Source of the DNA: Escherichia coli
Lineage (GTDB): Bacteria > Pseudomonadota > Gammaproteobacteria > Enterobacterales > Enterobacteriaceae
Length of the DNA stretch: 64,000 nucleotides
NCBI RefSeq assembly: GCF_030013205.1
Contig: NZ_CP122648.1
Direction: 5' to 3' (one strand)
Shown: one piece after another, positions 1 through 23,118 of the stretch
How the letters are laid out: every line of letters begins with the position of its first letter
Position numbering within the stretch: position 1 is the first letter of the stretch
Program-made: the position numbers and the translations under genes
The notes under the pieces: model-generated
The model's database searches: none
Told to the model about the DNA's origin: nothing
What the model saw: the letters and a program-made list of their open reading frames with translations, nothing else

Positions 1-532
1 GGAAGGTGACGGTAACTGCCGCCGCCGCCTGGCAACCTGGCTGCTGGACGGGAGTCAGCCGCCAACTCTATTACTGCCGGAGCAGGAAGGCATTAATGGC
101 ATTCGTTTCCCCATCTGGCTGGATGAAAACGGCAAACGTGTTGCCGCTGATTGCCCTCAGGCGCGACAAGAAATGATAAATGTCTGGCCGCTACCGCTGG
201 AACCCTGGTTGCCCGCATCAGAACGCCGCGCTGTGCGCTTACCACCGGCCTCGACAATTTGCCCGCCATACGGTCACGATGCACAACTCCCACTGCAGCT
301 GACAGGTGTTTGCGATGGCGCGATTATTAAACGTTTACCGGGCGCAGCGGAAGCGACTTTGCCGTTGCAATCAAGTGGAGGGGCAGGCGAACGCTGGTGG
401 TTTCTGAATGGCGAACCGTTAACTGAACGCGGGCGCAACGTGACCCTGCATTTGATGGATAAAGGCGATTATCAATTGCTGGTGATGGATGAGGTGGGGC
501 AAATCGCGACAGTGAAATTTGTCATGCAATAG
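1..532 (+). CDS. pbpC: 3' end of penicillin-binding protein 1C gene (partial; start lies upstream of window)
   Basis: ORF frame is open back to the window edge and ends at 530-532; position immediately upstream of ndk matches the E. coli pbpC-ndk arrangement. Identity rests on synteny, not motif. Confidence 0.5.
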   Translation, partial: EGDGNCRRRLATWLLDGSQPPTLLLPEQEGINGIRFPIWLDENGKRVAADCPQARQEMINVWPLPLEPWLPASERRAVRLPPASTICPPYGHDAQLPLQLTGVCDGAIIKRLPGAAEATLPLQSSGGAGERWWFLNGEPLTERGRNVTLHLMDKGDYQLLVMDEVGQIATVKFVMQ

Positions 533-680
533 TCTGTTTTGTCCCTGATTGTTGCTTAAACTAGGTTTATTTTAAAAAAATGTTACCTTCATCAATAGTC
601 AACGGCCCTGTTGCTCATTATAATCCGCGCCATCTCGTACGCTGGTACAGACAACAACAGAACAATTTACAGAGGTAAAA

Positions 681-1112
681 ATGGCTATTGAACGTACTTT
701 TTCCATCATCAAACCGAACGCGGTAGCAAAAAACGTCATAGGTAATATCTTTGCGCGCTTTGAAGCTGCAGGGTTCAAAATTGTCGGCACCAAAATGCTG
801 CACCTGACCGTTGAACAGGCTCGTGGCTTTTATGCTGAACACGATGGAAAACCGTTCTTTGATGGTCTGGTTGAATTCATGACTTCTGGCCCGATCGTTG
901 TTTCCGTGCTGGAAGGTGAAAATGCTGTTCAGCGTCATCGCGATCTGCTGGGCGCGACCAATCCGGCAAATGCACTGGCCGGTACTCTGCGTGCTGATTA
1001 CGCCGACAGCCTGACCGAAAATGGTACCCACGGTTCTGATTCCGTCGAATCTGCCGCTCGCGAAATCGCTTATTTCTTCGGCGAAGGCGAAGTGTGCCCG
1101 CGCACCCGTTAA
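681..1112 (+). CDS. ndk: nucleoside diphosphate kinase
   Basis: 143-aa ORF starting [15 protein letters not shown] with the NDK active-site region NGTHGSDS; length matches E. coli Ndk. Confidence 0.95.
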
Positions 1113-1175
1113 TAATTTCGTAAATGCCGCGTGCAAACGTGGCATCCGTGCGCCAGAATTTGTACAATGCAGCGC

Positions 1176-1214
1176 CCCCGGACGAGCAGCCGCTCACCGG
1201 GGCGTTTCTTTTTT
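1176..1214 (+). terminator. putative rho-independent terminator after ndk
   Basis: GC-rich inverted repeat (ccccgg...ccgggg) followed by a T-run (cgtttcttttttc). Confidence 0.45.
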
Positions 1215-1261
1215 CAACCCTCCAGGGGCCATAACGTGTAATAACGAGGCCGGAATAGCAT

Positions 1262-2416
1262 ATGTCTGAACAATTAGTCACACCTGAAAACGTCACCACG
1301 AAAGATGGAAAAATCAACCTGCTGGATCTCAACCGTCAGCAGATGCGGGAGTTTTTTAAAGATTTAGGTGAAAAACCCTTCCGCGCCGATCAGGTGATGA
1401 AGTGGATGTATCACTATTGCTGCGACAACTTTGATGAGATGACCGACATCAACAAAGTGTTGCGCGGCAAACTGAAAGAGGTGGCGGAGATCCGCGCACC
1501 GGAAGTGGTTGAAGAACAGCGTTCATCTGACGGCACCATTAAATGGGCAATTGCCGTTGGCGATCAGCGCGTCGAAACGGTGTATATCCCGGAAGACGAC
1601 CGCGCAACGCTCTGCGTCTCTTCGCAGGTGGGGTGTGCGCTGGAGTGTAAATTCTGTTCCACTGCCCAGCAGGGCTTTAACCGCAACCTGCGGGTATCGG
1701 AAATTATCGGCCAGGTGTGGCGTGCAGCGAAAATCGTCGGCGCAGCAAAAGTCACCGGTCAGCGTCCAATCACTAACGTAGTGATGATGGGCATGGGCGA
1801 GCCGCTGCTCAACCTGAACAATGTCGTTCCGGCGATGGAAATCATGCTTGATGATTTCGGTTTTGGCCTGTCTAAACGTCGCGTGACGCTTTCCACTTCC
1901 GGTGTAGTTCCGGCGCTGGATAAACTGGGCGATATGATCGACGTTGCACTGGCAATTTCCCTGCACGCGCCGAACGACGAAATTCGTGACGAAATTGTGC
2001 CGATCAACAAAAAGTACAATATCGAAACGTTCCTTGCTGCGGTGCGCCGTTATCTGGAGAAATCCAACGCCAATCAGGGCCGAGTCACTATTGAATACGT
2101 GATGCTTGACCACGTTAACGACGGCACTGAACACGCGCACCAACTGGCGGAGCTACTGAAAGATACGCCGTGTAAGATCAACCTGATCCCGTGGAACCCG
2201 TTCCCGGGCGCGCCGTATGGACGCAGTTCGAACAGCCGTATCGACCGTTTCTCAAAAGTGCTGATGAGCTACGGTTTCACCACTATTGTGCGTAAAACTC
2301 GTGGTGATGATATCGATGCTGCCTGTGGACAGTTGGCGGGCGATGTTATCGACCGTACGAAACGTACTCTGCGTAAACGGATGCAGGGTGAAGCCATCGA
2401 CATTAAAGCGGTCTGA
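1262..2416 (+). CDS. rlmN: 23S rRNA/tRNA m2A methyltransferase, radical SAM (RlmN)
   Basis: 384-aa ORF with radical-SAM cysteine motif CALECKFC; conserved position between ndk and rodZ. Confidence 0.92.
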
Positions 2417-2420
2417 TAGC

Positions 2421-2464
2421 CATTACGCCACGGTTACTTTATGTACCGTGGCGTAATCTTTTAT
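2421..2464 (+). terminator. rho-independent terminator after rlmN
   Basis: Perfect stem ttacgccacgg / ccgtggcgtaa followed by tcttttat. Confidence 0.55.
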
Positions 2465-2700
2465 GAATGAAGTATTAAGTTGCAATTGTCTGGTCAATAT
2501 TAACGGTGCGTTTTTGCTGACTTTAAGGCAGTATGTAACGATGCAACAGTAAGTTAGCCTTAGTGAATGTGGGCTTTGTCACGAGCACACAGACGGTCTT
2601 ATACTGTATGATAACGGTTAACTTAACGGATGTTTCGCGGTGTGGGTGAGCATGATGGTTCACCGGCATCTCAATTCTCATTTAAACGTACCTGCAGCGA

Positions 2701-3714
2701 ATGAATACTGAAGCCACGCACGACCAAAATGAAGCACTTACTACCGGCGCTCGCCTGCGTAATGCTCGCGAACAACTAGGACTTAGTCAGCAGGCCGTTG
2801 CCGAGCGACTTTGCCTGAAGGTTTCCACGGTACGCGACATTGAAGAAGATAAGGCACCCGCCGATCTTGCTTCAACATTCCTGCGCGGATATATCCGCTC
2901 TTATGCGCGTCTGGTACATATTCCAGAAGAAGAACTGCTGCCAGGGCTGGAAAAGCAGGCTCCACTACGGGCTGCAAAAGTTGCGCCGATGCAGAGTTTT
3001 TCCCTCGGTAAACGCCGCAAAAAACGCGACGGCTGGCTGATGACCTTCACCTGGCTGGTGTTGTTTGTGGTTATCGGCCTGAGCGGTGCCTGGTGGTGGC
3101 AAGACCACAAAGCTCAGCAGGAAGAGATCACCACTATGGCCGATCAATCTTCGGCGGAACTGAGCAGTAATAGCGAGCAGGGGCAGAGTGTTCCGTTAAA
3201 TACGTCGACAACTACAGACCCGGCTACAACGTCCACGCCGCCAGCGTCTGTGGATACTACCGCAACCAACACGCAAACACCTGCCGTAACTGCGCCAGCA
3301 CCAGCTGTTGATCCGCAACAGAATGCGGTTGTTTCGCCTTCGCAGGCAAATGTTGATACCGCCGCGACCCCGGCACCAACGGCAACAACAACGCCAGATG
3401 GTGCTGCGCCGTTGCCAACCGATCAGGCTGGCGTGACCACGCCGGCGGCTGATCCGAATGCGCTGGTGATGAACTTTACTGCCGATTGCTGGCTGGAGGT
3501 CACTGATGCTACCGGTAAAAAACTGTTTAGCGGGATGCAGCGTAAAGACGGTAATTTGAATTTAACCGGCCAGGCACCGTATAAACTGAAAATTGGTGCG
3601 CCAGCCGCAGTACAGATCCAGTATCAAGGGAAACCTGTCGATCTGAGTCGTTTTATCAGAACTAACCAGGTTGCGCGTCTGACCCTCAATGCCGAACAAT
3701 CACCGGCGCAGTAA
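2701..3714 (+). CDS. rodZ: cytoskeleton protein RodZ (HTH, single TM, Thr/Pro-rich linker)
   Basis: 337-aa ORF with N-terminal XRE-type HTH ([12 protein letters not shown]), TM segment ([16 protein letters not shown]) and low-complexity T/P/A linker; synteny with ispG. Confidence 0.9.
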
Positions 3715-3740: not shown

Positions 3741-4859
3741 ATGCATAACCAGGCTCCAATTCAACGTAGAAAATCAACACGTATTTACGTTGGGAATGTG
3801 CCGATTGGCGATGGTGCTCCCATCGCCGTACAGTCCATGACCAATACGCGTACGACAGACGTCGAAGCAACGGTCAATCAAATCAAGGCGTTGGAACGTG
3901 TTGGCGCTGATATCGTCCGTGTCTCAGTACCGACGATGGACGCGGCAGAAGCGTTCAAACTCATCAAACAGCAGGTTAACGTGCCGCTGGTGGCTGACAT
4001 CCACTTCGACTATCGCATTGCGCTGAAAGTAGCGGAATACGGCGTCGATTGTCTGCGTATTAACCCTGGCAATATCGGTAATGAAGAGCGTATTCGCATG
4101 GTGGTTGACTGTGCGCGCGATAAAAACATTCCGATCCGTATTGGCGTTAACGCCGGATCGCTGGAAAAAGATCTGCAAGAAAAGTATGGCGAACCGACGC
4201 CGCAGGCGTTGCTGGAATCCGCCATGCGTCATGTTGATCATCTCGATCGCTTGAACTTCGAACAGTTCAAAGTCAGCGTGAAAGCGTCAGACGTCTTCCT
4301 CGCTGTTGAGTCTTATCGTTTGCTGGCAAAACAGATCGATCAGCCGCTGCATCTGGGGATCACCGAAGCGGGTGGTGCGCGCAGCGGGGCGGTTAAATCC
4401 GCCATTGGTTTAGGTCTGCTGCTGTCTGAAGGCATTGGCGACACGCTGCGCGTATCGCTGGCGGCCGATCCGGTTGAAGAGATCAAAGTCGGTTTCGATA
4501 TTTTGAAATCGCTGCGTATCCGTTCGCGCGGGATCAACTTCATCGCCTGTCCAACCTGTTCGCGTCAGGAGTTTGATGTTATCGGTACGGTTAACGCGCT
4601 GGAGCAACGCCTGGAAGATATCATCACTCCGATGGACGTTTCGATTATCGGCTGTGTGGTGAATGGCCCAGGTGAGGCGCTGGTTTCTACACTCGGCGTC
4701 ACCGGCGGTAACAAGAAAAGCGGCCTCTATGAAGATGGCGTGCGCAAAGACCGTCTGGACAACAACGATATGATCGACCAGCTGGAAGCGCGCATTCGTG
4801 CGAAAGCCAGTCAGCTGGACGAAGCGCGTCGAATTGACGTTCAGCAGGTTGAAAAATAA
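3741..4859 (+). CDS. ispG: 4-hydroxy-3-methylbut-2-enyl diphosphate synthase (IspG/GcpE)
   Basis: 372-aa ORF starting [18 protein letters not shown]; Fe-S cysteines CPTCSR and GCVVNGPGE near the C-terminus. Confidence 0.95.
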
Positions 4860-4955
4860 TAACGTGATGGGAAGCGCCTCGCTTCCCGTGTATGATTGAA
4901 CCCGCATGGCTCCCGAAACATTGAGGGAAGCGTTGAGGGTTCATTTTTATATTCA
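4860..4955 (+). ncRNA. sroE: possible SroE-like small RNA in the ispG-hisS intergenic region
   Basis: Recalled only: an sRNA is reported 3' of ispG in E. coli; the spacer shows a stem (gggaagcgcctcgcttccc). No independent sequence proof. Confidence 0.3.
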
Positions 4956-9661: not shown

Positions 9662-9723
9662 TCACTTATCTGGTTTCCCTTTCCACACGGAAAGGGAAAC
9701 CGAATAACGCGCGAGGAGTATTT

Positions 9724-9939
9724 ATGGCACTCAACTGTCCAACCTGCAAAACCCCTCTCGAACGCAATGGCGAGACTGCCCACTGTGCAACTTGCGACAA
9801 AGACTTTACCGTCCAGGCACTTTGCCCTGAGTGTCATCAGCCGTTACAAGTGTTAAAAGCTTGTGGTGCTGTGGATTATTTCTGCCAACATGGGCACGGT
9901 TTAATATCTAAAAAACGCGTTGAATTTGTTATTGCTTAA
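9724..9939 (+). CDS. yfgJ: small zinc-ribbon protein YfgJ
   Basis: 71-aa ORF with CPTC...CATC and CPEC...CQHGH cysteine pairs, adjacent to der. Confidence 0.75.
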   Translation: MALNCPTCKTPLERNGETAHCATCDKDFTVQALCPECHQPLQVLKACGAVDYFCQHGHGLISKKRVEFVIA

Positions 9940-10148
9940 TATCATGTGAATATATTGTTTTATCATTTATATTTAATATGTGAATGGTAAAACAATCTGT
10001 TATTAGTGGAATAACTAATGTAATTGAGTGAAATCACTAATTTAAATAATTAAGAATATATTTATTCTTTATGACATGCCTTTCTGAATAATCAGGGATA
10101 CAATATTAAAGCTTATTTTTGACTGTATCATTGTTACAGGGAAAGTGC

Positions 10149-12326
10149 ATGCTGCGATGGAAACGCTGTATTATGCTAACATTTATCTCTGGTGCTGCTT
10201 TCGCGGCACCAGAGATAAATGTTAAGCAAAACGAATCGTTACCTGATTTAGGTAGCCAGGCAGCACAGCAGGATGAACAAACCAACAAGGGTAAATCGCT
10301 GAAAGAGCGCGGAGCCGATTACGTCATCAACTCCGCCACGCAAGGGTTTGAAAACTTGACCCCTGAGGCGCTGGAATCTCAGGCCAGAAGCTATCTGCAA
10401 AGTCAAATCACCTCAACCGCACAATCTTATATTGAAGACACACTCTCTCCCTACGGTAAGGTCCGTTCGAACCTCTCCATTGGCCAGGACGGCGATCTGG
10501 ATGGTAGTTCCATCGATTATTTTGTTCCCTGGTACGATAATCAAACCACTGTTTATTTCAGTCAATTTTCTGCGCAACGAAAAGAAGATCGTACAATCGG
10601 GAATATTGGTCTTGGGGTAAGACATAATTTTGATGAATGGTTATTGGGCGGAAATATATTTTATGATTATGATTTTACCCGAGGACATCGCCGTTTAGGT
10701 TTAGGCGGCGAAGCGTGGACTGATTATTTAAAATTCTCTGGCAACTATTATCATCCGCTTTCTGACTGGAAAGACTCTGAAGATTTCGACTTTTATGAAG
10801 AACGCCCTGCGCGCGGCTGGGATATTCGTGCCGAAGCCTGGTTACCTTCTTATCCGCAACTGGGGGGCAAAGTTGTCTTCGAGCAATATTACGGCGATGA
10901 AGTCGCCCTTTTTGGTACGGATAATTTGGAGAAAGATCCCTACGCGGTAACACTTGGACTGAATTATCAACCGGTGCCATTACTAACCGTTGGGGCGGAC
11001 TATAAAGCGGGGACCGGAGATAACAGCGATGTCAGCATTAATGCCACTCTTAATTATCAGTTCGGCGTTCCGCTAAAAGATCAATTGGATAGCGATAAAG
11101 TGAAAGCGGCTCACTCGTTGATGGGCAGTCGTCATGATTTTGTTGAGCGTAATAACTTTATTGTTCTGGAATACAAAGAAAAAGATCCGCTTGATGTCAC
11201 CCTGTGGTTAAAAGCGGATGCCACCAACGAGCACCCTGAGTGCGTCATTAAGGACACTCCCGAAGCGGCCGTCGGGCTGGAAAAATGTAAGTGGACCATT
11301 AACGCGCTTATCAACCACCACTACAAAATTGTCGCTGCGTTATGGCAGGCGAAAAACAATGCTGCCCGCACGTTGGTTATGCCGGTTATCAAAGAGAATA
11401 CCCTGACAGAGGGTAACAATAACCACTGGAACCTGGTGCTGCCCGCCTGGCAGTACAGCTCTGACAAAGCCGAACAAGAAAAACTCAATACCTGGCGAGT
11501 ACGTCTGGCACTGGAAGATGAAAAGGGCAACCGACAGAACTCTGGCGTGGTGGAAATCACCGTTCAGCAGGACCGTAAAATAGAGTTGATTGTTAATAAC
11601 ATCGCGAACGTGCCGGAAGAGAACAACCACAGCCACGAAGCCAGCGCTCAGGCAGATGGCGTTGATGGTGTGGTGATGGATCTCGATGTAACCGACAGCT
11701 TTGGCGATAACACCGACCGCAATGGCGATGCGCTGCCGGAAGATAACCTCACGCCGCAGCTTTACGACGCGCAGGACAAACGAGTGACGTTAACCAACAA
11801 GCCTTGCTCGACCGACAACCCCTGCGTTTTTATCGCTAAACAAGATAAAGAAAAGGGCACTGTCACCCTCTCCAGTACCTTACCCGGCACCTATCGCTGG
11901 AAAGCAAAAGCTGCGCCCTACGACGACAGTAACTATGTGGATGTCACTTTCCTCGGGGCAGAAATTGGTGGGCTAAATGCATTTATCTATCGTGTGGGGG
12001 CGGCTAAACCCAGCAACCTGATAGGTAAAGATAAAGAACCGCTGCCGCTCAACAACACTTATCGATTTGTTTTGTGGCGTGACAGCAATAAAGACGGTGT
12101 CTTCCAGCAGGTCGAAAAACTGACTGACGAAGAGATGGCGCAGTACGACTACAAGTGGGAATTTACCGGCAAGAGCATCAATGGTGAAGTGGGTGCACAG
12201 GCGAACACTTCCAATGAGGACATTGTGATTCCGGCCACTAACCGCGAAGCAGCGCAAACCTATGGCGCACAAGCGGGAGATGGCTTGCAGGGATACGGTT
12301 TACGCGTGCTGTATACCAAAAAATAA
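10149..12326 (+). CDS. sinH: intimin/invasin-family inverse autotransporter adhesin (SinH-like)
   Basis: Signal peptide MLRWKRCIMLTFISGAAFA; beta-barrel region with the typical alternating aromatic pattern of the intimin/invasin family; AT-rich upstream region; locus between yfgJ and xseA matches the Salmonella CS54/sinH position as recalled. Confidence 0.7.
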   Translation: MLRWKRCIMLTFISGAAFAAPEINVKQNESLPDLGSQAAQQDEQTNKGKSLKERGADYVINSATQGFENLTPEALESQARSYLQSQITSTAQSYIEDTLSPYGKVRSNLSIGQDGDLDGSSIDYFVPWYDNQTTVYFSQFSAQRKEDRTIGNIGLGVRHNFDEWLLGGNIFYDYDFTRGHRRLGLGGEAWTDYLKFSGNYYHPLSDWKDSEDFDFYEERPARGWDIRAEAWLPSYPQLGGKVVFEQYYGDEVALFGTDNLEKDPYAVTLGLNYQPVPLLTVGADYKAGTGDNSDVSINATLNYQFGVPLKDQLDSDKVKAAHSLMGSRHDFVERNNFIVLEYKEKDPLDVTLWLKADATNEHPECVIKDTPEAAVGLEKCKWTINALINHHYKIVAALWQAKNNAARTLVMPVIKENTLTEGNNNHWNLVLPAWQYSSDKAEQEKLNTWRVRLALEDEKGNRQNSGVVEITVQQDRKIELIVNNIANVPEENNHSHEASAQADGVDGVVMDLDVTDSFGDNTDRNGDALPEDNLTPQLYDAQDKRVTLTNKPCSTDNPCVFIAKQDKEKGTVTLSSTLPGTYRWKAKAAPYDDSNYVDVTFLGAEIGGLNAFIYRVGAAKPSNLIGKDKEPLPLNNTYRFVLWRDSNKDGVFQQVEKLTDEEMAQYDYKWEFTGKSINGEVGAQANTSNEDIVIPATNREAAQTYGAQAGDGLQGYGLRVLYTKK

Positions 12327-12380: not shown

Positions 12381-13358
12381 ATGAAGCAGGATAAAAGACG
12401 CGGTCTGACCCGGATCGCATTGGCGCTGGCACTGGCAGGTTATTGTGTGGCACCTGTGGCACTGGCGGAAGAAAGCGCCTGGGTCGACAGCGGCGAAACC
12501 AATATTTTCCAGGGAACCATTCCGTGGCTCTATTCGGAAGGGGGAAGCGCTACGACAGATGCCGACCATGTAACGTTGACTTCTGATCTAAAAGGCGCTC
12601 GCCCGACAGGTAGTGAAACGGACAAGCGTCTTTACTCGGGTGATAAATTAACCGTAAGTTGGGAAATTGGTGATACCGAAGGCGACGTGGATCTTGGGGG
12701 ATTGGGCGATAACGCAAAGACTATCGATACTATCCGCTGGATGAGCTACAAGGACGCTCAGGGTAACGATCCAAAAGAGCTGGTAACGAAGGTGACCAGT
12801 TACACCCTTACCGATGCCGACCGTGGTCGTTATATCGGTATTGAAATTACGCCAACCACGCAGACCGGTACGCCAAACGTCGGGAATGCGCTGCATCTTT
12901 ATGACATTTCCACTGCCAGCGGCGGCGGAAGCGACAGCGACAACGTTGCGCCAGGGCCGGTGGTTAACCAGAACCTGAAAGTCGCCATCTTTGTTGATGG
13001 TACCAGTATCAACCTTATCAACGGCAGCACGCCAATCGAACTTGGCAAAACCTACGTGGCCAAACTGTACTCGGATGAGAACAAAAACGGCAAGTTTGAT
13101 GCGGGTACCGATGCTGACGTTACCGCCAATTATGACTTCCGTTGGGTACTTTCTGGCAGCAGCCAGCAGCTCGGCACCTCGGGTGGTATCGTTAACTCAA
13201 GCTTCGATAATAACAATCTGGTCATCCCTGCGACCAACGAAGACGCCAGAACCAACCTTAACGGCCCTGCGCGCGATGGTAAAGAAGCTCTTACCATCCC
13301 GACCAACGGCGACGGGGTACAGGGGTACAAACTTCACATTATTTACAAACACAAATAA
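12381..13358 (+). CDS. secreted SinI-like protein sharing domains with both neighbours
   Basis: Signal peptide ending VALA-EESAW; C-terminus (GVQGYKLHIIYKHK) parallels the SinH-like C-terminus (GLQGYGLRVLYTKK); N-terminus parallels the mature N-terminus of the downstream giant protein. Confidence 0.6.
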   Translation: MKQDKRRGLTRIALALALAGYCVAPVALAEESAWVDSGETNIFQGTIPWLYSEGGSATTDADHVTLTSDLKGARPTGSETDKRLYSGDKLTVSWEIGDTEGDVDLGGLGDNAKTIDTIRWMSYKDAQGNDPKELVTKVTSYTLTDADRGRYIGIEITPTTQTGTPNVGNALHLYDISTASGGGSDSDNVAPGPVVNQNLKVAIFVDGTSINLINGSTPIELGKTYVAKLYSDENKNGKFDAGTDADVTANYDFRWVLSGSSQQLGTSGGIVNSSFDNNNLVIPATNEDARTNLNGPARDGKEALTIPTNGDGVQGYKLHIIYKHK

Positions 13359-13478
13359 CGCGTACTCAGCAGCATTCCCGCAAGGGAATGCTGTTTCCGC
13401 ATATTTTGCTTAATCCCGGATTAAGCAAAATATGTTGATGCGACAAGCGTCCGTTTAACAACCGGTGGAGTTTCTGTC

Positions 13479-16400
13479 ATGTCCCTGACCCTGAATAAAA
13501 TCCTTGTGTTATGCGCATTGCTGATAAGCGCAATGCTGCCTGGGTGGTCATGGGCAGAATCTGCATGGCAAGACTCTTCAGATACGGTCGGCGAATTTAA
13601 CGGTACCGTGCCCACCGCCGACAGTGCCAGCATACCCGTCTACCAGGGCAGTGTCTTTCTGGATCCTGCAAAGACGCATGAGGTAGCGTTTACCGCTAAA
13701 CCGAGTGAATTCAGCGCGGATATTAGCGTCTCTAAATTGCTCGTCACCAATCCGCAAGACAGAGAAGGCGATATCATTTCCACCCCACGTTGGGAAAACC
13801 AAACGCCACCGACAGTATCTTTAGTTTGGGCGGATGCCGCGACGCCGGACACCTTACTGGACCCACAGCCAGTCGCAGATCGCTCGTTTTGCGCTCAGGG
13901 ACTTGCCGGGCGTTCGCTGGTCGCCTGGGCGCAGCCTGATCCCCAACAGACCATGCCGCTGTTATATTTACTCACCTCGACGGGCTATCCCTATGAAAGT
14001 GTTCTGACGCTCGCCGATCAGAAAGTGACGCTGAAGATTGCGCCCGCGCAGGGTGACCTTATTTCCGTCAGCGCCGCGGGCTATGACGAATCCTCCGGTG
14101 CGGCGAAAACGACGGTTGGCGGCAGTATCACGTTAACGGTCACCACCAAAGATTGCGTCGGTAATGTTGTGGGGAATATTCCTTTTGTTATCAAACGCAA
14201 AGATGCTGAAAACCGCCAGGGTGTGGTGAACAATACTGCGCCGGTAAAACTGGGCACGACCGAATTAACCACCACCGCGACGGAATATCGTGGTACTACC
14301 GATGCGAATGGTGTTGCCACGGTTACGGTCACCCAGGCCAACGGCCCTGGTGTAAAAACGCCGTTGGTCGCGAGCCTTGCGGGTATTGCTCAGGCCAGTG
14401 AAACGGCAGTGATCTTTACCGTCCTCACCAGCCCGGATGTCCCGCAGGCTACAATGTGGGGTCATATGCCCGATACGCTGAAGGCCCGTGATTACACTTT
14501 TAGTCGACCAAAACTGGCGGCGGAAGTCGATAATGAAGACGGTACGGTTAACGATCACAATGAAACCTGGTCCACCTTTACCTGGAGCGGCGCGGATAAA
14601 CATTGCGACATTTTGCCCGGAATGCGTCAGTTCGGTGCGCTGGCGACGGTGGTGCCAACGTCAGTGCAGGATGTGGCTGGTTGGCCGATGCAGGGTAATT
14701 TCTACTGGTCATCACTGGCGGGGATGAGTGGCCAGCACCATGCGGCGGATGTTTCGAACCGCAGCGAAGCGCAAAAACCGGACGATACGACGTTTATTGT
14801 GAGCTGTGTCGATAAAGAAGCGCCCGATGTTGAACCGAAGCTGGTACTGACGCCGGGCAGTTATGATTCGACGATAAAAGCGATGAAAGTAAAGGTGGGG
14901 GAAGAGGCTTCTTTACGCCTGACGATTACCGATAGCAAGAACAACGATCAGCCGCTGGCGTACTACTACTTTTCGCTGCATCTGGATGACGGCGTTAACC
15001 GTAAGAATCAAACTGACACCGCGTGGCAGGCGAATCCGGTACAAATAGCGGGCGGCAGTAATGTCCATCAGGTTGACGCGCATACCTATGAAGGGATCAC
15101 TGATGCTAACGGAGAGGCCTCTCTGACGCTGACCCAGCCAGGCGGTGTGGGGGTGAAAACTCACATCACCGCGAGAATGCGCAGCGATTTTACCGCCTCG
15201 GATGAGAAAGACGTTATTTTTACGGTGATCACCAGCCCTGATTCCGACAAAGCGCGGATGTGGGGACATATGTTGGGCATTATTGAAGCGAATAATATCT
15301 TTAAACGCCCACGGCTGGCGGATGAAACCGACAACGAACTGGGTGCAGTGCGGGAAAATAACGAAGACTGGGCGCTGTTTGATCAGAATAGCAGTATGCA
15401 GGCTGAGTGTGGTTTAGGTCATATTCCGAGCCAAAGCTCATTGCACAGTTTGTTTGCCGCACATCCAGCCAATGTCATCGGCACCGAATATGGCTGGCCA
15501 ACGTTGCAAAAAGCGTATCTTAGTGCGGTGGAAGAGACGTCGCACGCGTCGGTGAACCTGGCCACGGGCAACATCGACACCTATTCCGGCTTTAAGCAAA
15601 ACTACCTTTCTTGTTCGGGCAATGAGATGGTCGCCCAGATTGCTGCGACCACCGATCATGATGTTTCCACAAGCAGCAGAGCGCAGGCTAAAGTGGGTGA
15701 AACGATTACCATGACGGTACGCACCTTTAATGCCTTGAATAATGCGCCCGTGCCGTATACCGCGTTCACCATCACTAAAGATATGGGGAAAAATCGTCAG
15801 GGGCAGAGCACGGGTTTCGATGATCCAACCCGCGGCGCAATCGAGATGAATGGCACGCTCTACGGAACATCGCAACCGTCTTTAGTCTATGCAGGTACTA
15901 CGGATGCGCAGGGTTTTGCTACTGTGGAAATTAAGCAACCGCAAGGTGTGGGCTTAGCGACGCCGCTGAATATTGCGCCTGTAAACTCCTATATTCCCAA
16001 TACTGTTAATTACAATGTGATTTTCACTACGCTCACCAGTCCGGATGCGGTTGGCGCGCAGATGTGGGGGCATATGGATGAGACGATTACCGTCGATGCA
16101 TTAACCTTTGCCCGACCCCGGCTGGCTGCGGAAGTGTCCAGCCCGGACGGCACATTAACGGAAAATAACGAAGTGTGGTCGCGCGTTAGCCAGGCCAACA
16201 CTTCCAGCACCAGTAAAGGTGGCTGTGGTGCCAATATGCTCCCACGCCGTTCCCAGCTTAACGCGCTCTATGATGCTAACAGCGGTAACGCCGTTCAAAC
16301 GGTACACGGTTGGCCAACGCAGCGTCAGCCCTACTGGAGCAGTTCGCCCGCGGATCAGGTGCCGCATTACTACACCATAGCCCTCAACGATGGCGCGCGG

Positions 16401-19400
16401 ACCGTTGGCGGTAGCACGGCGGTTTATGTCAGTTGCCTGACGACGGCTAACAATCCTGCCAGCAGCATTACGCTGGAAGTGGTGGACCCGGCGCAGTGGA
16501 ACGCGGCAGCAAATGCGGCGAAGCTGAAAAAAGGCGAAACGCTACAGGTGAAGGTGACGGTAAAAGATGCTCAGGGCAATCCATTGGGTGATATGCCTTT
16601 TACGCTGAAGCGTGGCGATGGTTATACCCGATCAAACGAAAAACACATTGCCGGTAGCGGTGATGCGCTGGTTGCGCCGGTTGTGATCAATAGTGGCCTG
16701 GCGGATGAAACTTCGCTCAATGATACCGCCGCAGCATACAGCGCGATGACCGGTAGCGATGGCACTAAAATTCTCACTATTACCCGCCCGGATACCCATG
16801 GCACAAAAACGTCGCTGACCGCCGCGCTCTATTCAGACACAACGAAAAAAGCGACCCTCGATACCATTTTTACCGTTGTCACCAGCCCAGACAGCAATAA
16901 AGCGAAAATGTGGGGGCATATGCCGGAAACGGTGACGGCTGCGGATGGAACGGTCTTTAAACGCCCATTATTGTTGAAAGAGTTATCCAGTACGTCGGGT
17001 CGAACAGCGATTGCAGAAGATAATGAGGACTGGGCGCAATTTACCCAAACTCAGGCGACAAGCACATCCTCTAATGGTTGTGGTAGTGAATATGTTCCCT
17101 CTCAGGCCGGGCTGGAGTCATTGTATGAAGCCAACCGCGGCAATGCGATGAAAACGGTTCAGGGCTGGCCCGTCGCCTCAAGTTACCTTACCAGCACGAC
17201 AGGCAGCAGTAGTCTGGAACAGCGTGACTTAAAGGCCGTCAATCTCAGTTCAGGCACCAGTTCGATAATTCCATCGGCCACAAAAGAACTGCTTACCTGC
17301 CAGACGACGCCGATCGTCAAGGCTAGCCAAATCGTTCTTGAGGCTGCGGACCCCACAAAATTTGACAGTACGAATAATGTTGTCAAAGCGAAAAAAGGGG
17401 AAGAAGTCGTGGTTCGCGTGACCACTAAAGATTCGCAGGGTAACCCGGTGGGAAATACCGCGTTTACGCTTAAACGTAACCTTAGCGTCAATCGGGCAAA
17501 TGCGTCTACAACGGTGACAGCAGGCGCGCTCATCGTGACGGATGCCTGGGGTAACACGCAGAGTAATTTTTCCTCAACAACAGCACTGATTTATGGCGTT
17601 ACCGGCGCAGATGGTACGACAACACTTGCACTGAAACAGGACAATACCACGGGTTTAAAAACCGAACTGACCGCCATGCTGGATACAGATAATAACGTAA
17701 AATCAATGCTTCCGGTGGTCTTTACGGTGATAACCAGCCCCGATACCCCTAAAGCAAAATTCTGGGGGCATATGGCCGAAACGATGACCGGTGCAGGCGG
17801 GCTTATTTATAAAAGACCGTTATTGCAAGATGAGCTTTCCGTTACAACCAGTCGAAGCTCTTTTCAGGAAGATGGAGAGAGCTGGTCACTGTTCTCGCCG
17901 GACCAGTCGAACAACACATCTGTAAATGGTTGCGGTGCAGGATATGTCCCGATTGAAAGTGAGCTGGAGTCACTGTATGCCGATGAAGGTTACGTGCCAA
18001 TACATGACGTTACGGGATGGCCTGTATCACGCGCCTATATCTCCAGTACGGTTGTTGCCTATTACACTCAAACATTTAATTTTAAAGCGGTTTCGTTAAA
18101 AACGGGTGATGGAACGGAGGTCATGTCAAGCAGTCTAGGACTGCTAAGTTGTCGGGCTACCCCAGTGGCGGTGACCAGCCACATTATTGTTGAAGCGAAC
18201 GATGCGACACAATTTGTCAAAGTTGACGAAACCCTCAGCGCACTAAAACGGAAAAAAGGTGACGACGCGGTGATTCGCGTGGTGACAAAAGATGCGCAGG
18301 GAAATGTCGTACCAAATGTTCCGTTTATTCTCAAACGTGAAGGATCGACAAATCGCCAGAATGTACAGTTGTCGAACAGAACTATCACTGTAATCAACGC
18401 TGCGGGAACGTCGGCAAGAGTGGATACTCCATCAATCTCCCTTTATGCGGTGACAGGTGCAGACGGGACAGCCACGTTTACGGTAAAGCAGGATGATTCT
18501 ATAGGCCTGGTAACCAATGTGTACGCTCAGGCCTATCAGTCGAGCCTGGAATCCAACAAATTACCCGTGATGTTTACCGTGATAACCAGCCCGGATACCC
18601 CCCTGGCAAGTTACTGGGGGCATATGGCGGAAACGTTCACTACGCGTTCTGGTACTGCCTTCAAACGCCCCTTACTCTCTGCTGAAAGATCGTCGGGCCA
18701 GTCGTTTATAGAAGACAATGAAGAGTGGGCCGTGTTGAGATCGGCAACAAAGGGGGATATCGATAAAAGCGGGTGCGATGTACATTATCAACCACTGTTA
18801 AGCGAACTACAGGCATTGTACGACGAACACCCAAGTCGTGCGATAAAGACCGATCTGGGTATTCCGGTAAATAGCTACTGGTGGGCTTACGACATGGTGG
18901 CATATGCGGGTAACTGGTACGATCAATATATTTATCTGTTAAATGGATCAAGTGGAAGAGCGTCTTCAACCACCTCGGCATTAATGCTGTGCCTGGTAAA
19001 CCCTCATCCAGAGGCGGCTTCTATTGAAATGACCTCAACGGCGGAGGATGCAACGAAAACGGCCAGCAATGATGGCAGGCCCAGCGCAACAGCGAAGAAG
19101 GGAGAGGTTATCCCGATGACTGTTACGGTGCGAGATAGCGCAGGCAATCCACTGCCAGGTGCCAGCTTTAACCTTAAACGAGGAACTGCGCTGAACCGCG
19201 CTAAAGCTGCGTACGATGCCTCTGCAGATGATCTTACCATCATACCTGTGGAACCTACTGGGGTAACGTCAATCTTGTATGGGGATGGGACGCAGGCTCT
19301 TCTGAAGACAGGGAGCGATGGTAAAGCTACGTTTGAGGTCAGCCAGAATAGCAGTTATGGGCTGTCAACGCCGCTCAGCGCAGAACTCATGCGCGATACC

Positions 19401-21521
19401 TCGAAAAGCGTCACGCTGGATGTCATTTTCACGGTGATAACCAGCCCGGATTCGCCAAAAGCGAAATACTGGGGCCATATGCCGGAAACGTTTACCAGTT
19501 CGGCAGGCGTGACCTTCAAGCGCCCATTACTGGCAGCGGAAGCGACTACGGGGAGCTCGGTAAACGGTAATAATGAGACATGGTCATATATATATAGTAC
19601 TCAAAAAGCGACGGCAGATTGTTCGCTGGAATATCAACCGCGCCTCAGCGAATTGCAGGGGTTATATGACGATCACCCAAACGGGGCGTTAACGAAAGAT
19701 CTGGGGTTGCCGATAGCGTCAGGAAACTGGTGGATTTATGAATTGCTTAACTCCAATGGTAGCTCCTGGTATTATCAGGTCTTTAACCTAAGTACGGGAC
19801 GAGTATCATCCGCACTCTCTCCGGTTGCTCTAATGCTCTGCCTGGCACAGCCTCACTCTAAGCCGTCAAGCGTTACCCTGACTTCAATAGCATTTGATGA
19901 GACGAGAACCGCAAGTAACGGCGGCACACCTTCGGCATCGGCGAAAAAGGGCGAGACAATCCCGTTAGTCGTGACAGTAAAAGACCAAAATGGCAACCTG
20001 GTGAGTGGTGAGGGCGTGACGCTTCAGCGGGCGCAGGCGAAAAGTCGTTCAGGAATTAGGCCCTCATCGTTGGCAGATGATCTTATTGTAGATGTTGTCA
20101 CACCGACAGCAACCCGTATTTCTTTTGCTCAGGATACGGCAAAATGGCTTGGTTTTACCGGCAGTGATGGCACAGTGACGTTCAATGTTACGCAAAACGC
20201 CACCACCGGCCTGGCAACGCCGTTTACGGTCTCGCTTGCACAAGATCCGCAGATCACGTCAAACTTGGACCTGATATTTACCGTGGTCACCAGCCCTGAC
20301 GCCCAGGATGCCGACTACTGGGGTCATATGCCAGAAACGGTGACAGCGGCAAATGGAACCGTCTTTGAACGACCGAAATTGTGGAAGGAGCTGCCATCGA
20401 CCTCCGGGGTAAATAAAACCAATAACAATAATGAGGACTGGCCCTATTTTTCGTCAACCACTAAAGCAAATGCCAGCCTCAGCCCTTGTGAGGAAGCCCG
20501 GCAACCGTTGCTCAGCGATATGAAGTCACTGTATCAACGTTATCCCAATAACACCCTTACGACGGAAACTGGCTGGTCAGTTTATTATTACTGGTGGGCG
20601 CAGGATAAGACTACAGATGGTAAAAATCAGTCGCTCAATATGAAAGATGGCACAACGACATTGAATGGTAATGCCGCTTATCAGGCGTGTCTGGTGTCTG
20701 CGCGCGCGACGGTTTCCAGCGTCACACTGACCTCAACAGCGTTTGATGCTGACAGCCAGGCGGCGAAAGTGAAAAAAGGCGAAGCCATGCCCGTTACCGT
20801 GACGGTGAAAGACAGCGCCGGGAATACGGTACCGAATGTGGAATTTACTTTGAAACGTGGCGATGCATCGCCGCGTAACGCTGGGGCGACGTTGTATGGT
20901 GATGTGGTGGCGATGGACGATCTCATCGTTCAGCCGTTATCTGGTTCGGCTGTTACGCTGAGTGAAAGCGGTAATACCATTAGTGGCATGACAGGCGCGG
21001 ATGGGACGGCAAGTTTTACGCTCCGCCAGGATAATACCCCTGGTTATAAAACGCCACTGACGGTTACTCTGGCTAATTACGCTTCCGCGACAGACACGCT
21101 GGACGCTATTTTTACGGTACCAACCAGCCCGAATGTTTCCTCGGCGCACTTTTGGGGACATATGGCAGACACTGTAGTGGTGAATGGTAAATCGCTACAT
21201 CGACCGTTGTTAACGACAGAATTGCCGTCCGGGGCTAATCCCGTATCCTCACCGATTATTAACTACGAAAACTGGGCTTCTGCACATATCATTGATGCCA
21301 GTAAATGGGATATTGCAAGGCAGTGTGGCAGCATAGAAAATGCACCGACATACAATGAATTAGAGTTGTTGCACACTGTTTTTAATTCACTGGGATGGCC
21401 GTCTTCACCAAGTTTTCCTTATTTGTCCTCTCAACAGTGTGGGATGGACGAAGGCACTGGAGCACAGGATTGTAGTATCACGCTAATGAATAAACCGGGT
21501 CTGGTGACCTGCTTCCAGTAA
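13479..21521 (+). CDS. giant RatA/RatB-like secreted repeat protein (9 tandem ~290-aa repeats)
   Basis: 2680-aa ORF with signal peptide; nine repeats each marked by IFTV(I/V)TSPD..(K/A)..WGHM; repeat-internal opposite-strand ORFs are artefacts. Confidence 0.7.
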
Positions 21522-21526
21522 CCAGC

Positions 21527-21580
21527 ATGGCGCATCTGGCGTGGCCTGGGAGCCAGTGCCGGATGCGATGCTGGCGCATC
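21527..21580. repeat. REP-like extragenic palindrome between the giant adhesin gene and xseA
   Basis: Sequence gccggatgcgatgctggcgcatcttat resembles E. coli REP units. Confidence 0.4.

Positions 21581-23118
<1,538 letters not shown>

Follow-up and report, generated by a model that had tools for sequence, protein, structure and literature searches.

The perfect palindrome between sinI and a giant ratA-like adhesin gene of Escherichia coli is, on balance, probably the DNA image of a stem-loop formed in the + strand RNA. It would make up the second half of an element of about 75 nt with two hairpins, in which a leaky terminator at the end of sinI is followed by a structured boundary ahead of the giant gene. 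This element is present in single copy and is specific to the sinI-ratA junction. As judged from its sequence, it is an intercistronic RNA motif, conserved and so far uncharacterised, within a virulence island.

The palindrome is localized in a stretch of 64,000 nucleotides (hereafter the window) with the gene order ndk-rlmN-rodZ-ispG-hisS-yfgM-bamB-der-yfgJ (zinc-ribbon)-sinH-sinI-'adhesion domain-containing protein'-xseA(-)-guaBA, the names being taken from the RefSeq annotation of an identical E. coli record (CFSAN018748, 100% identity over the query). The giant protein of 2680 aa contains alternating BIg21 and InvE_AD repeats and is RatA-like, and the locus is the E. coli chromosomal ila cluster (ila/CS54 island). 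The ila cluster of ExPEC is related to the CS54 island of Salmonella (PMC12928451). The genes sinH and sinI and the Rat-like genes have been regarded as forming an operon, with SinH as a possible translocator of the products encoded downstream (PMC4943183), and a review describes sinH as co-transcribed with sinI (PMC12525524, citing Shea 2022). LeuO activates the promoter of the orthologous iatB (PMC6714894), and the genes are treated in several studies as an operon or cluster with a promoter upstream of sinH/iatB under LeuO (PMC4943183, PMC6714894, PMC12928451, PMC12525524). In the window, the region upstream of sinH (about 9940-10148), read from the sequence, is extremely AT-rich, as would be expected for an H-NS-silenced promoter. 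No regulator gene is annotated by RefSeq in the island. The features of the locus are as follows, in window coordinates:

10149..12326, + strand: sinH, intimin-like inverse autotransporter, first gene of the cluster (RefSeq; Pfam IAT_beta, E = 3e-109)
12381..13358, + strand: sinI, SinI-family autotransporter-associated protein, with the element just 3' of it
13367..13441, + strand: whole two-hairpin intercistronic element (hairpin 1, spacer, hairpin 2 and 3' flank), delimited by covariance model R1
13368..13395, + strand: hairpin 1, GC-rich, GCAA loop, about -20 kcal/mol, terminator-like (repeat finder, folding)
13394..13399, + strand: U-rich spacer UUUCCG (UUUUCCG in most orthologues), the short U-tract of hairpin 1
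13400..13434, + strand: hairpin 2, the reported palindrome, a perfect 17-bp stem with 31% GC and about -17 kcal/mol
13435..13440, + strand: conserved 3' flank UUGAUG (UUGAA in most orthologues)
13464..13470, + strand: Shine-Dalgarno sequence GGTGGAG of the giant adhesin gene, outside both hairpins
13479..21521, + strand: ratA-like giant adhesin gene, 2680 aa, downstream of the element

A sequence-only reading of the window had first drawn attention to the palindrome, describing near-perfect arms of 14 bp at 13399-13432. The palindrome is real, but it is both larger and perfect. Two arms of 17 nt, 100% complementary, were located by a repeat finder at 13400-13416 (CATATTTTGCTTAATCC) and 13418-13434 (GGATTAAGCAAAATATG), with the single base C13417 between them. 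No longer perfect short-range inverted repeat occurs in the 64-kb window, and this one was reproduced in 0 of 100 dinucleotide shuffles; it is not a chance feature. Its surroundings had been described correctly. Directly 5' of it stands a terminator-like hairpin (a 10-bp stem with a GCAA loop at 13370-13393, then TTTCCG), and the start of the giant gene, which had been placed about 45 bp downstream, is the ATG at 13479, 44 nt 3' of the palindrome.

From 5' to 3', the junction reads TAA (13356-13358, the last base of the sinI stop codon being 13358), CGCGTACTCAG, CAGCATTCCC, GCAA, GGGAATGCTG and TTTCCG, then hairpin 2 as CATATTTTGCTTAATCC-C-GGATTAAGCAAAATATG, followed by TTGATG, GGTGGAG and the ATG (13479). 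The 123-nt intergenic RNA is predicted to fold with -49 kcal/mol (z = -6.4). Hairpin 1 pairs 13370-13379 with 13384-13393, with an additional G13369.U13394 pair. Bases C13397 and G13399 of the spacer are invariant and able to pair with the 3' flank of hairpin 2; in the RNAalifold structure, the pairs G13399.U13435, C13397-G13437 and U13396-A13438 extend the hairpin 2 helix to about 20 bp. Counted as the 17-bp stem plus three to four flank pairs with one mismatch, the helix would reach about 20-21 bp, the flank pairs being invariant and without covariation. Downstream of the element come an unpaired linker, which is in many cases rich in A, and the ratA ribosome-binding site.

The occurrence of the palindrome was surveyed by BLAST with a 43-nt query around it against 5426 complete E. 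coli genomes, each site being reported twice owing to the palindromy. One site per genome was found in 946 of the 5426, and 0 on plasmids. The surrounding island is present in 938 genomes, nearly the same set, and among the 5426 there was no genome that had the palindrome without the island. A second site was found neither in the 64-kb window, with up to 3 mismatches, nor by BLAST in the 5426 genomes, a search that degenerate split sites would escape. Covariance model R1, built from the 15 orthologous junctions described below, scores 84.8 bits at 13367..13441 and otherwise gives only weak minus-strand echoes of the same site in the window. The genome search that the sequence-only reading had proposed as a check on a generic repeat points instead to a selected element, present once and confined to carriers of the island. 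In the main E. coli lineage, the only common variant is G13434A (about 170 genomes), which opens the terminal pair alone. In Salmonella, the element is absent from the ratA-ratB junction, which precedes the next giant gene. No family of Rfam 15 corresponds to the element, the only matches being to microRNAs at chance level (14-18 bits against gathering scores of 49-95).

A metagenome scan with the core pattern TTTGCTTA-N7-11-TAAGCAAA matched at least 120 places. Two of the matches listed are sinI-ratA junctions (L040 and L140), the other places being unrelated and heterogeneous; at 75 of the 120 places listed, the palindrome ends with the pattern and has no extension. One unrelated sequence that contains the core pattern, tttcatcaTTTGCTTATGAAAGTAATAAGCAAAgcagaggg, recurs in both orientations in about a dozen human gut metagenome contigs (L024, L026, L035, L036, L044, L057, L060, L062, L070, L074, L094, L120), and is apparently a conserved locus of some gut organism that contains the pattern by accident. 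A contig of 3.1 kb binned in a 'Collinsella sp.' MAG (L003, JAIJJM010000381.1) carries an E. coli SinI (98% identity) and an element identical to that of the window; this binning is almost certainly a contamination of the public MAG.

Orthologous sinI-ratA junctions were collected through SinI homologues, by protein search and contig look-ups, and 15 were compared. Those from Escherichia are the window itself, an E. coli allele of 84% identity, EPEC E2348/69, two E. coli/Escherichia lineages (42-49% identity) and E. albertii; the others come from three Pseudocitrobacter, S. enterica, S. bongori, C. youngae, Kluyvera, Superficieibacter and Leminorella. Both hairpins, the spacer and the 3' flank are kept in 15 of 15 junctions, down to a SinI identity of about 42%, and the remainder of the sinI-ratA spacer is not alignable across them. 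Hairpin 1 is a GC-rich stem of 10-13 bp with a loop of mostly 4 nt (3-6), followed by U3-5 and then CCG or CAG. Hairpin 2 has 13-17 bp and is followed by GUUGA(A); from there a linker that resists alignment, and that is often rich in A, leads to the Shine-Dalgarno sequence and the ATG. The distance from the element to the start codon ranges over about 30-51 nt.

The same boundaries appear in pairwise alignment. When the junction of the Escherichia sp. E4208 type was searched by blastn against E. coli genomes, only query positions 35-110, which correspond to the element, were aligned (81.8% identity); this alignment was obtained in about 740 window-type genomes, and the flanking coding DNA gave none. 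One lineage departs from the compact arrangement. In E. coli 95-3192 (NZ_CP027362.1; L145, 161-335), a REP/BIME insertion of about 175 nt, which contains two inverted REP-like units and repeats part of the 3' half of hairpin 1, separates the two hairpins at a point equivalent to 13393/13394 or so of the window, and hairpin 2 with its GTTGAA flank is intact. About 48 genomes match the island type of 95-3192. This insertion makes it doubtful that strict adjacency of the hairpins is required, and it is evidently not essential in every lineage.

Base pairing within the 15 sequences provides evidence for an RNA structure. Over both hairpins, 97.3% of the cells of the alignment form standard pairs, and compensatory changes are seen in 11 of 25 pairs. 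The observed percentage of pairing and covariation score were reached in 0 of 500 column shuffles, a statistic that overstates the significance, given the relatedness of the 15 sequences. When the 3' partners are shifted by 1-3 columns, the pairing falls to about 40%. When no structure was supplied, RNAalifold returned the same two helices together with the three spacer-flank pairs (G.U, C-G, U-A), all of which are invariant, so that covariation speaks neither for nor against this extension. Hairpin 1 alone has 99.3% of its cells paired and compensatory changes in five of its ten pairs. In hairpin 2, five outer and two inner pairs covary, as in the replacement of CAUA/UAUG by CCUG/CAGG or in the series U-A / U.G / C-G and A-U / G.U / G-C at single positions, and the sequence of the loop is free. 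Its eight central pairs, UUUGCUUA/UAAGCAAA, are almost invariant, as are the top of hairpin 1 (UCCC/GGGA) and the flank GUUGA.

Departures from perfect complementarity are unequally distributed between the strands. Read as + strand RNA, the differences between the arms of hairpin 2 are G.U in 24 cells (7 positions, several of them common to many taxa), as against A.C in 3 cells, all singletons. Hairpin 2 is 96.0% paired on the + strand and 86.7% on the - strand, and the whole structure 97.3% and 90.6%, respectively. Altogether, this comparative evidence shows both hairpins to be under selection for + strand base pairing across Enterobacterales.

The two hairpins differ in what follows them. 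Hairpin 1, of about -20 kcal/mol, leads into UUUCCG or UUUUCCG, with T-tail scores of 2.5-3.7 in 14 of 15 orthologues and 1.75 in the EPEC lineage. It fits a Rho-independent terminator loosely (a GC-rich stem of 10-13 bp, a tetraloop and 3-5 U), and it looks like an intrinsic terminator of weak to moderate strength; a strict scan for the terminator consensus called neither hairpin. Hairpin 2 is AU-rich and is followed in 15 of 15 orthologues by GUUGAUG or GUUGAA, never by a U-run, unlike Rho-independent terminators. Because it lacks a U-run and is AU-rich, it is not itself a terminator, which agrees with the earlier suggestion that the palindrome is something other than just a terminator.

These features can be joined in a tentative course of events. 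Transcription would start from the AT-rich promoter of H-NS/LeuO type upstream of sinH. Hairpin 1 and its short U-tract would then act as a leaky intrinsic terminator, ending most sinH-sinI transcripts and capping the terminated mRNA with a protective 3' hairpin. A fraction of the polymerases would pass hairpin 1, and only on such read-through RNA would hairpin 2 fold. Its flank UUGAA would pair with UUC.G of the spacer, whereby the U-tract would be absorbed into a helix of about 20 bp, and the folded hairpin 2 would leave hardly any single-stranded linker between both helices. The 8-kb ratA message would in this way gain a structured 5' boundary. Such a boundary might serve as a determinant of processing or stability, for example as a helix of a size suited to RNase III or as a protective 5' stem-loop, and might also act as an insulator that keeps the ribosome-binding region of ratA unpaired. 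An attenuator-plus-boundary element of this kind would determine how much RatA is made relative to SinH/SinI. That polymerases pass hairpin 1, that ratA is co-transcribed and that the RNA is processed are steps that we infer from the sequence. Moreover, the near-invariance of UUUGCUUA/UAAGCAAA, UCCC/GGGA and GUUGA at this divergence points beyond a plain structural role, and the invariant stem core suggests that some factor may also read its sequence.

A similar arrangement is found in E. coli at rpsO-pnp, where the rpsO terminator t1 is followed by the long pnp leader hairpin that is cleaved by RNase III. At both loci a leaky terminator, putative in the case of hairpin 1, follows the upstream gene, and a long stem-loop and an unpaired linker then lead to the ribosome-binding site of a large gene; in both, too, the helix spans about two turns if the flank pairs of the element are counted. 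However, the two are unrelated in sequence, the hairpin of pnp is interrupted by internal loops and exceeds hairpin 2 in length, and pnp is also served by a promoter of its own. Cleavage by RNase III and autoregulation are features of rpsO-pnp, to which the element may be likened by layout alone. We know of no need of RNase III for an invariant core such as UUUGCUUA. Other intercistronic or 5' stem-loop elements include the processing site of papB-papA, the 5' hairpin of ompA and the REP stabilisers of malEFG. Like the sinI-ratA element, these are hairpins acting in cis outside a ribosome-binding site, and the element could similarly set differential expression within an operon. Those examples have been defined experimentally, mostly without sequence conservation across genera, whereas the element is known from its sequence, is single-copy and supported by covariation, and has an invariant core.

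The sequence-only reading had proposed a binding site for a dimeric regulator. In such a reading, a dimeric transcription factor bound to the duplex TTTGCTTA-N9-TAAGCAAA would govern how the giant adhesin gene is transcribed, acting for instance as a roadblock or by activating a weak internal promoter. Dimeric HTH operators (LacI, CRP, LysR type) do resemble the palindrome in having a perfect inverted repeat and conserved half-site cores near the start of a gene. From E. coli to Leminorella, loop and flanks drift and the 8-bp core of each arm hardly changes, which is what sequence-specific recognition would give, and the site is unique and adjoins the gene. TTTGCTTA and TAAGCAAA stand 9 nt apart in 11/15 orthologues; however, they are 8 nt apart in 3/15 and 11 nt apart in 1/15, a variation that suits a loop and not a rigid dimer. 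The bias toward G.U on one strand (24 vs 3) is not predicted by symmetric recognition of DNA, and the outer stem covaries instead of being fixed. Unlike those operators, moreover, the palindrome overlaps no promoter. A consensus scan and alignment revealed no sigma-70 promoter between sinI and ratA, and none that is conserved, the single match (13474-13501) overlapping the start codon; there is no conserved -35/-10 pair, and the ATG, at a variable distance, is too close to leave room for a promoter and a leader. The island encodes no regulator, and a second site was found neither in the window, with up to 3 mismatches, nor by BLAST in the 5426 E. coli genomes. A DNA operator is accordingly disfavoured and considered unlikely. 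Because of the G.U asymmetry, the variable core spacing, the floating distance to the start codon and the lack of a promoter, the evidence favours a stem-loop in the sense-strand RNA. The invariant 8-bp core allows for a sequence-specific partner, which would recognise RNA or, less probably, DNA.

Several candidate signals at the junction were considered and rejected. TTGCTT, or the conserved TTGAA located 3' of the hairpin, taken as a -35 hexamer on either strand, has no conserved -10 partner, and a transcript started from it would begin within or past the Shine-Dalgarno sequence. By eye, the consensus sequences of sigma-54, sigma-E and sigma-28 promoters do not fit. In an informal comparison with known operator consensus sequences, CRP, FNR, PurR, SlyA (TTAGCAAGCTAA), the RcsB box, LysR T-N11-A and IHF were also considered, and none fits across the orthologues. 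The antitermination signals boxA/nut and rrn, as well as RfaH ops, show a loose resemblance at most (UUGCUUA vs GCUCUUUA). A small ORF of 8 codons (ATG...TAA at 13432-13458) is not conserved in the orthologues.

Among readings that keep the RNA, it is rather unlikely, though conceivable, that the two hairpins form a sequence-specific functional RNA, which would either promote processive antitermination through the 8-20 kb of adhesin genes, in the manner of phage HK022 put, or be the site of an RNA-binding protein controlling translation or decay of ratA. The element as a whole, of about 75 nt, would then be a previously undescribed regulatory RNA of CS54/ila, put-like or an RNA operator of RatA, read by RNA polymerase or by a dedicated factor, and this we likewise hold to be of low probability. 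HK022 put RNAs are also two adjacent stem-loops in about 70 nt of nascent RNA upstream of a long transcription unit, and in the element two stem-loops, almost contiguous, occupy about 72 nt immediately before a very long one. The stem sequences of both hairpins are invariant beyond the needs of pairing, and the element is the sole conserved stretch between island types. In contrast to put, the first stem of the element is followed by a terminator-like U-tract, and hairpin 1 resembles an ordinary terminator. The lack of an Rfam match and the absence of the element before ratB in Salmonella also speak against such an RNA, and the lineage in which a REP insertion parts the hairpins is evidence against a compact unit of two stems. 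Nor did model R1 find a significant match in the HK022 genome, in the PL/PR leaders or elsewhere, the one partial match (13.9 bits, E = 0.08) being to a terminator-like hairpin of the PL leader. This hairpin (L144, 28194-28229, - strand), upstream of nun, is AU-rich, reads GGCUUUUUUGCUUUU...AAAAAGCAAAGCAGC and is followed by UUUUU; it matches the hairpin 2 half of R1 and has the stem words UUUGCUU/AAGCAAA in common with it. The likeness is probably a coincidence.

Tandem hairpins are common at 3' ends, and hairpin 2 lies directly 3' of the terminator-like hairpin at the end of sinI. It might be a generic 3'-end structure, a back-up terminator or exonuclease block for the sinH-sinI mRNA, with ratA expressed independently. 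This appears quite unlikely: the stem is AU-rich, a U-run follows it in none of the 15 orthologues (GUUGAA stands there instead), no ratA promoter is visible downstream, and a core that stays invariant at about 42% protein identity is not expected of generic stabiliser hairpins. A long perfect intergenic palindrome in a horizontally acquired island, with REP units nearby, could also be a mobile or repeated remnant, such as a REP/BIME, the end of a MITE or the inverted repeat of an IS. That origin is exceedingly improbable and effectively refuted, given exactly one site in each of the 946 genomes and none without the island, no similarity to REP, two sinI-ratA loci as the only ones with the element among the matches listed for at least 120 metagenome places, and an orthologous position in all 15 taxa.

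SinH, SinI and RatA are factors in the colonisation and virulence of ExPEC and of Salmonella, SinH being a vaccine candidate as well (PMC9937491, PMC12525524). The covariation-supported element at the sinI-ratA junction would offer a mutable handle on the expression of RatA relative to SinH, its presumed translocator, and it is a candidate for a new entry in an RNA family database. Should a factor or RNA polymerase prove to read the invariant core, giant adhesin genes in Enterobacterales would be shown to have a control step dedicated to them.

Some further sequences of the window are recorded here. The right-arm core of hairpin 2 is repeated as GTTAAGCAAAAC at 10223-10234, about 74 nt into the sinH coding region, where it is complementary to the left arm. 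It occurs at the same place in four Escherichia lineages (also L007 343, L010 339 and L018 358) and is absent from Salmonella, Citrobacter and E. albertii; it may reflect coding conservation, chance or a long-range pairing partner. A 9-mer in common with hairpin 2, TTGCTTAAT, is present at 9932-9940, at the yfgJ stop, with a chance expectation of about 0.5 per window. Directly 3' of der and before the zinc-ribbon gene, a hairpin with arms of 19 nt (TTATCTGGTTTCCCTTTCC/GGAAAGGGAAACCGAATAA) at 9666-9707 is probably a terminator or attenuator of der. A REP-like palindromic unit (GCCGGATGCGATGCTGGCGCATCTTATGG) was noticed by eye at 21548-21590, in the convergent gap between the stops of ratA and xseA. 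Rfam matches above the gathering score were obtained elsewhere in the window at 4859-4950 (+), 49048-49135 (-) and 49154-49230 (-), and comprise the sRNA sroE and a C4 antisense RNA adjoining isrK; the latter pair suggests a prophage of P4/P2 type, or a remnant of one, near 49 kb.
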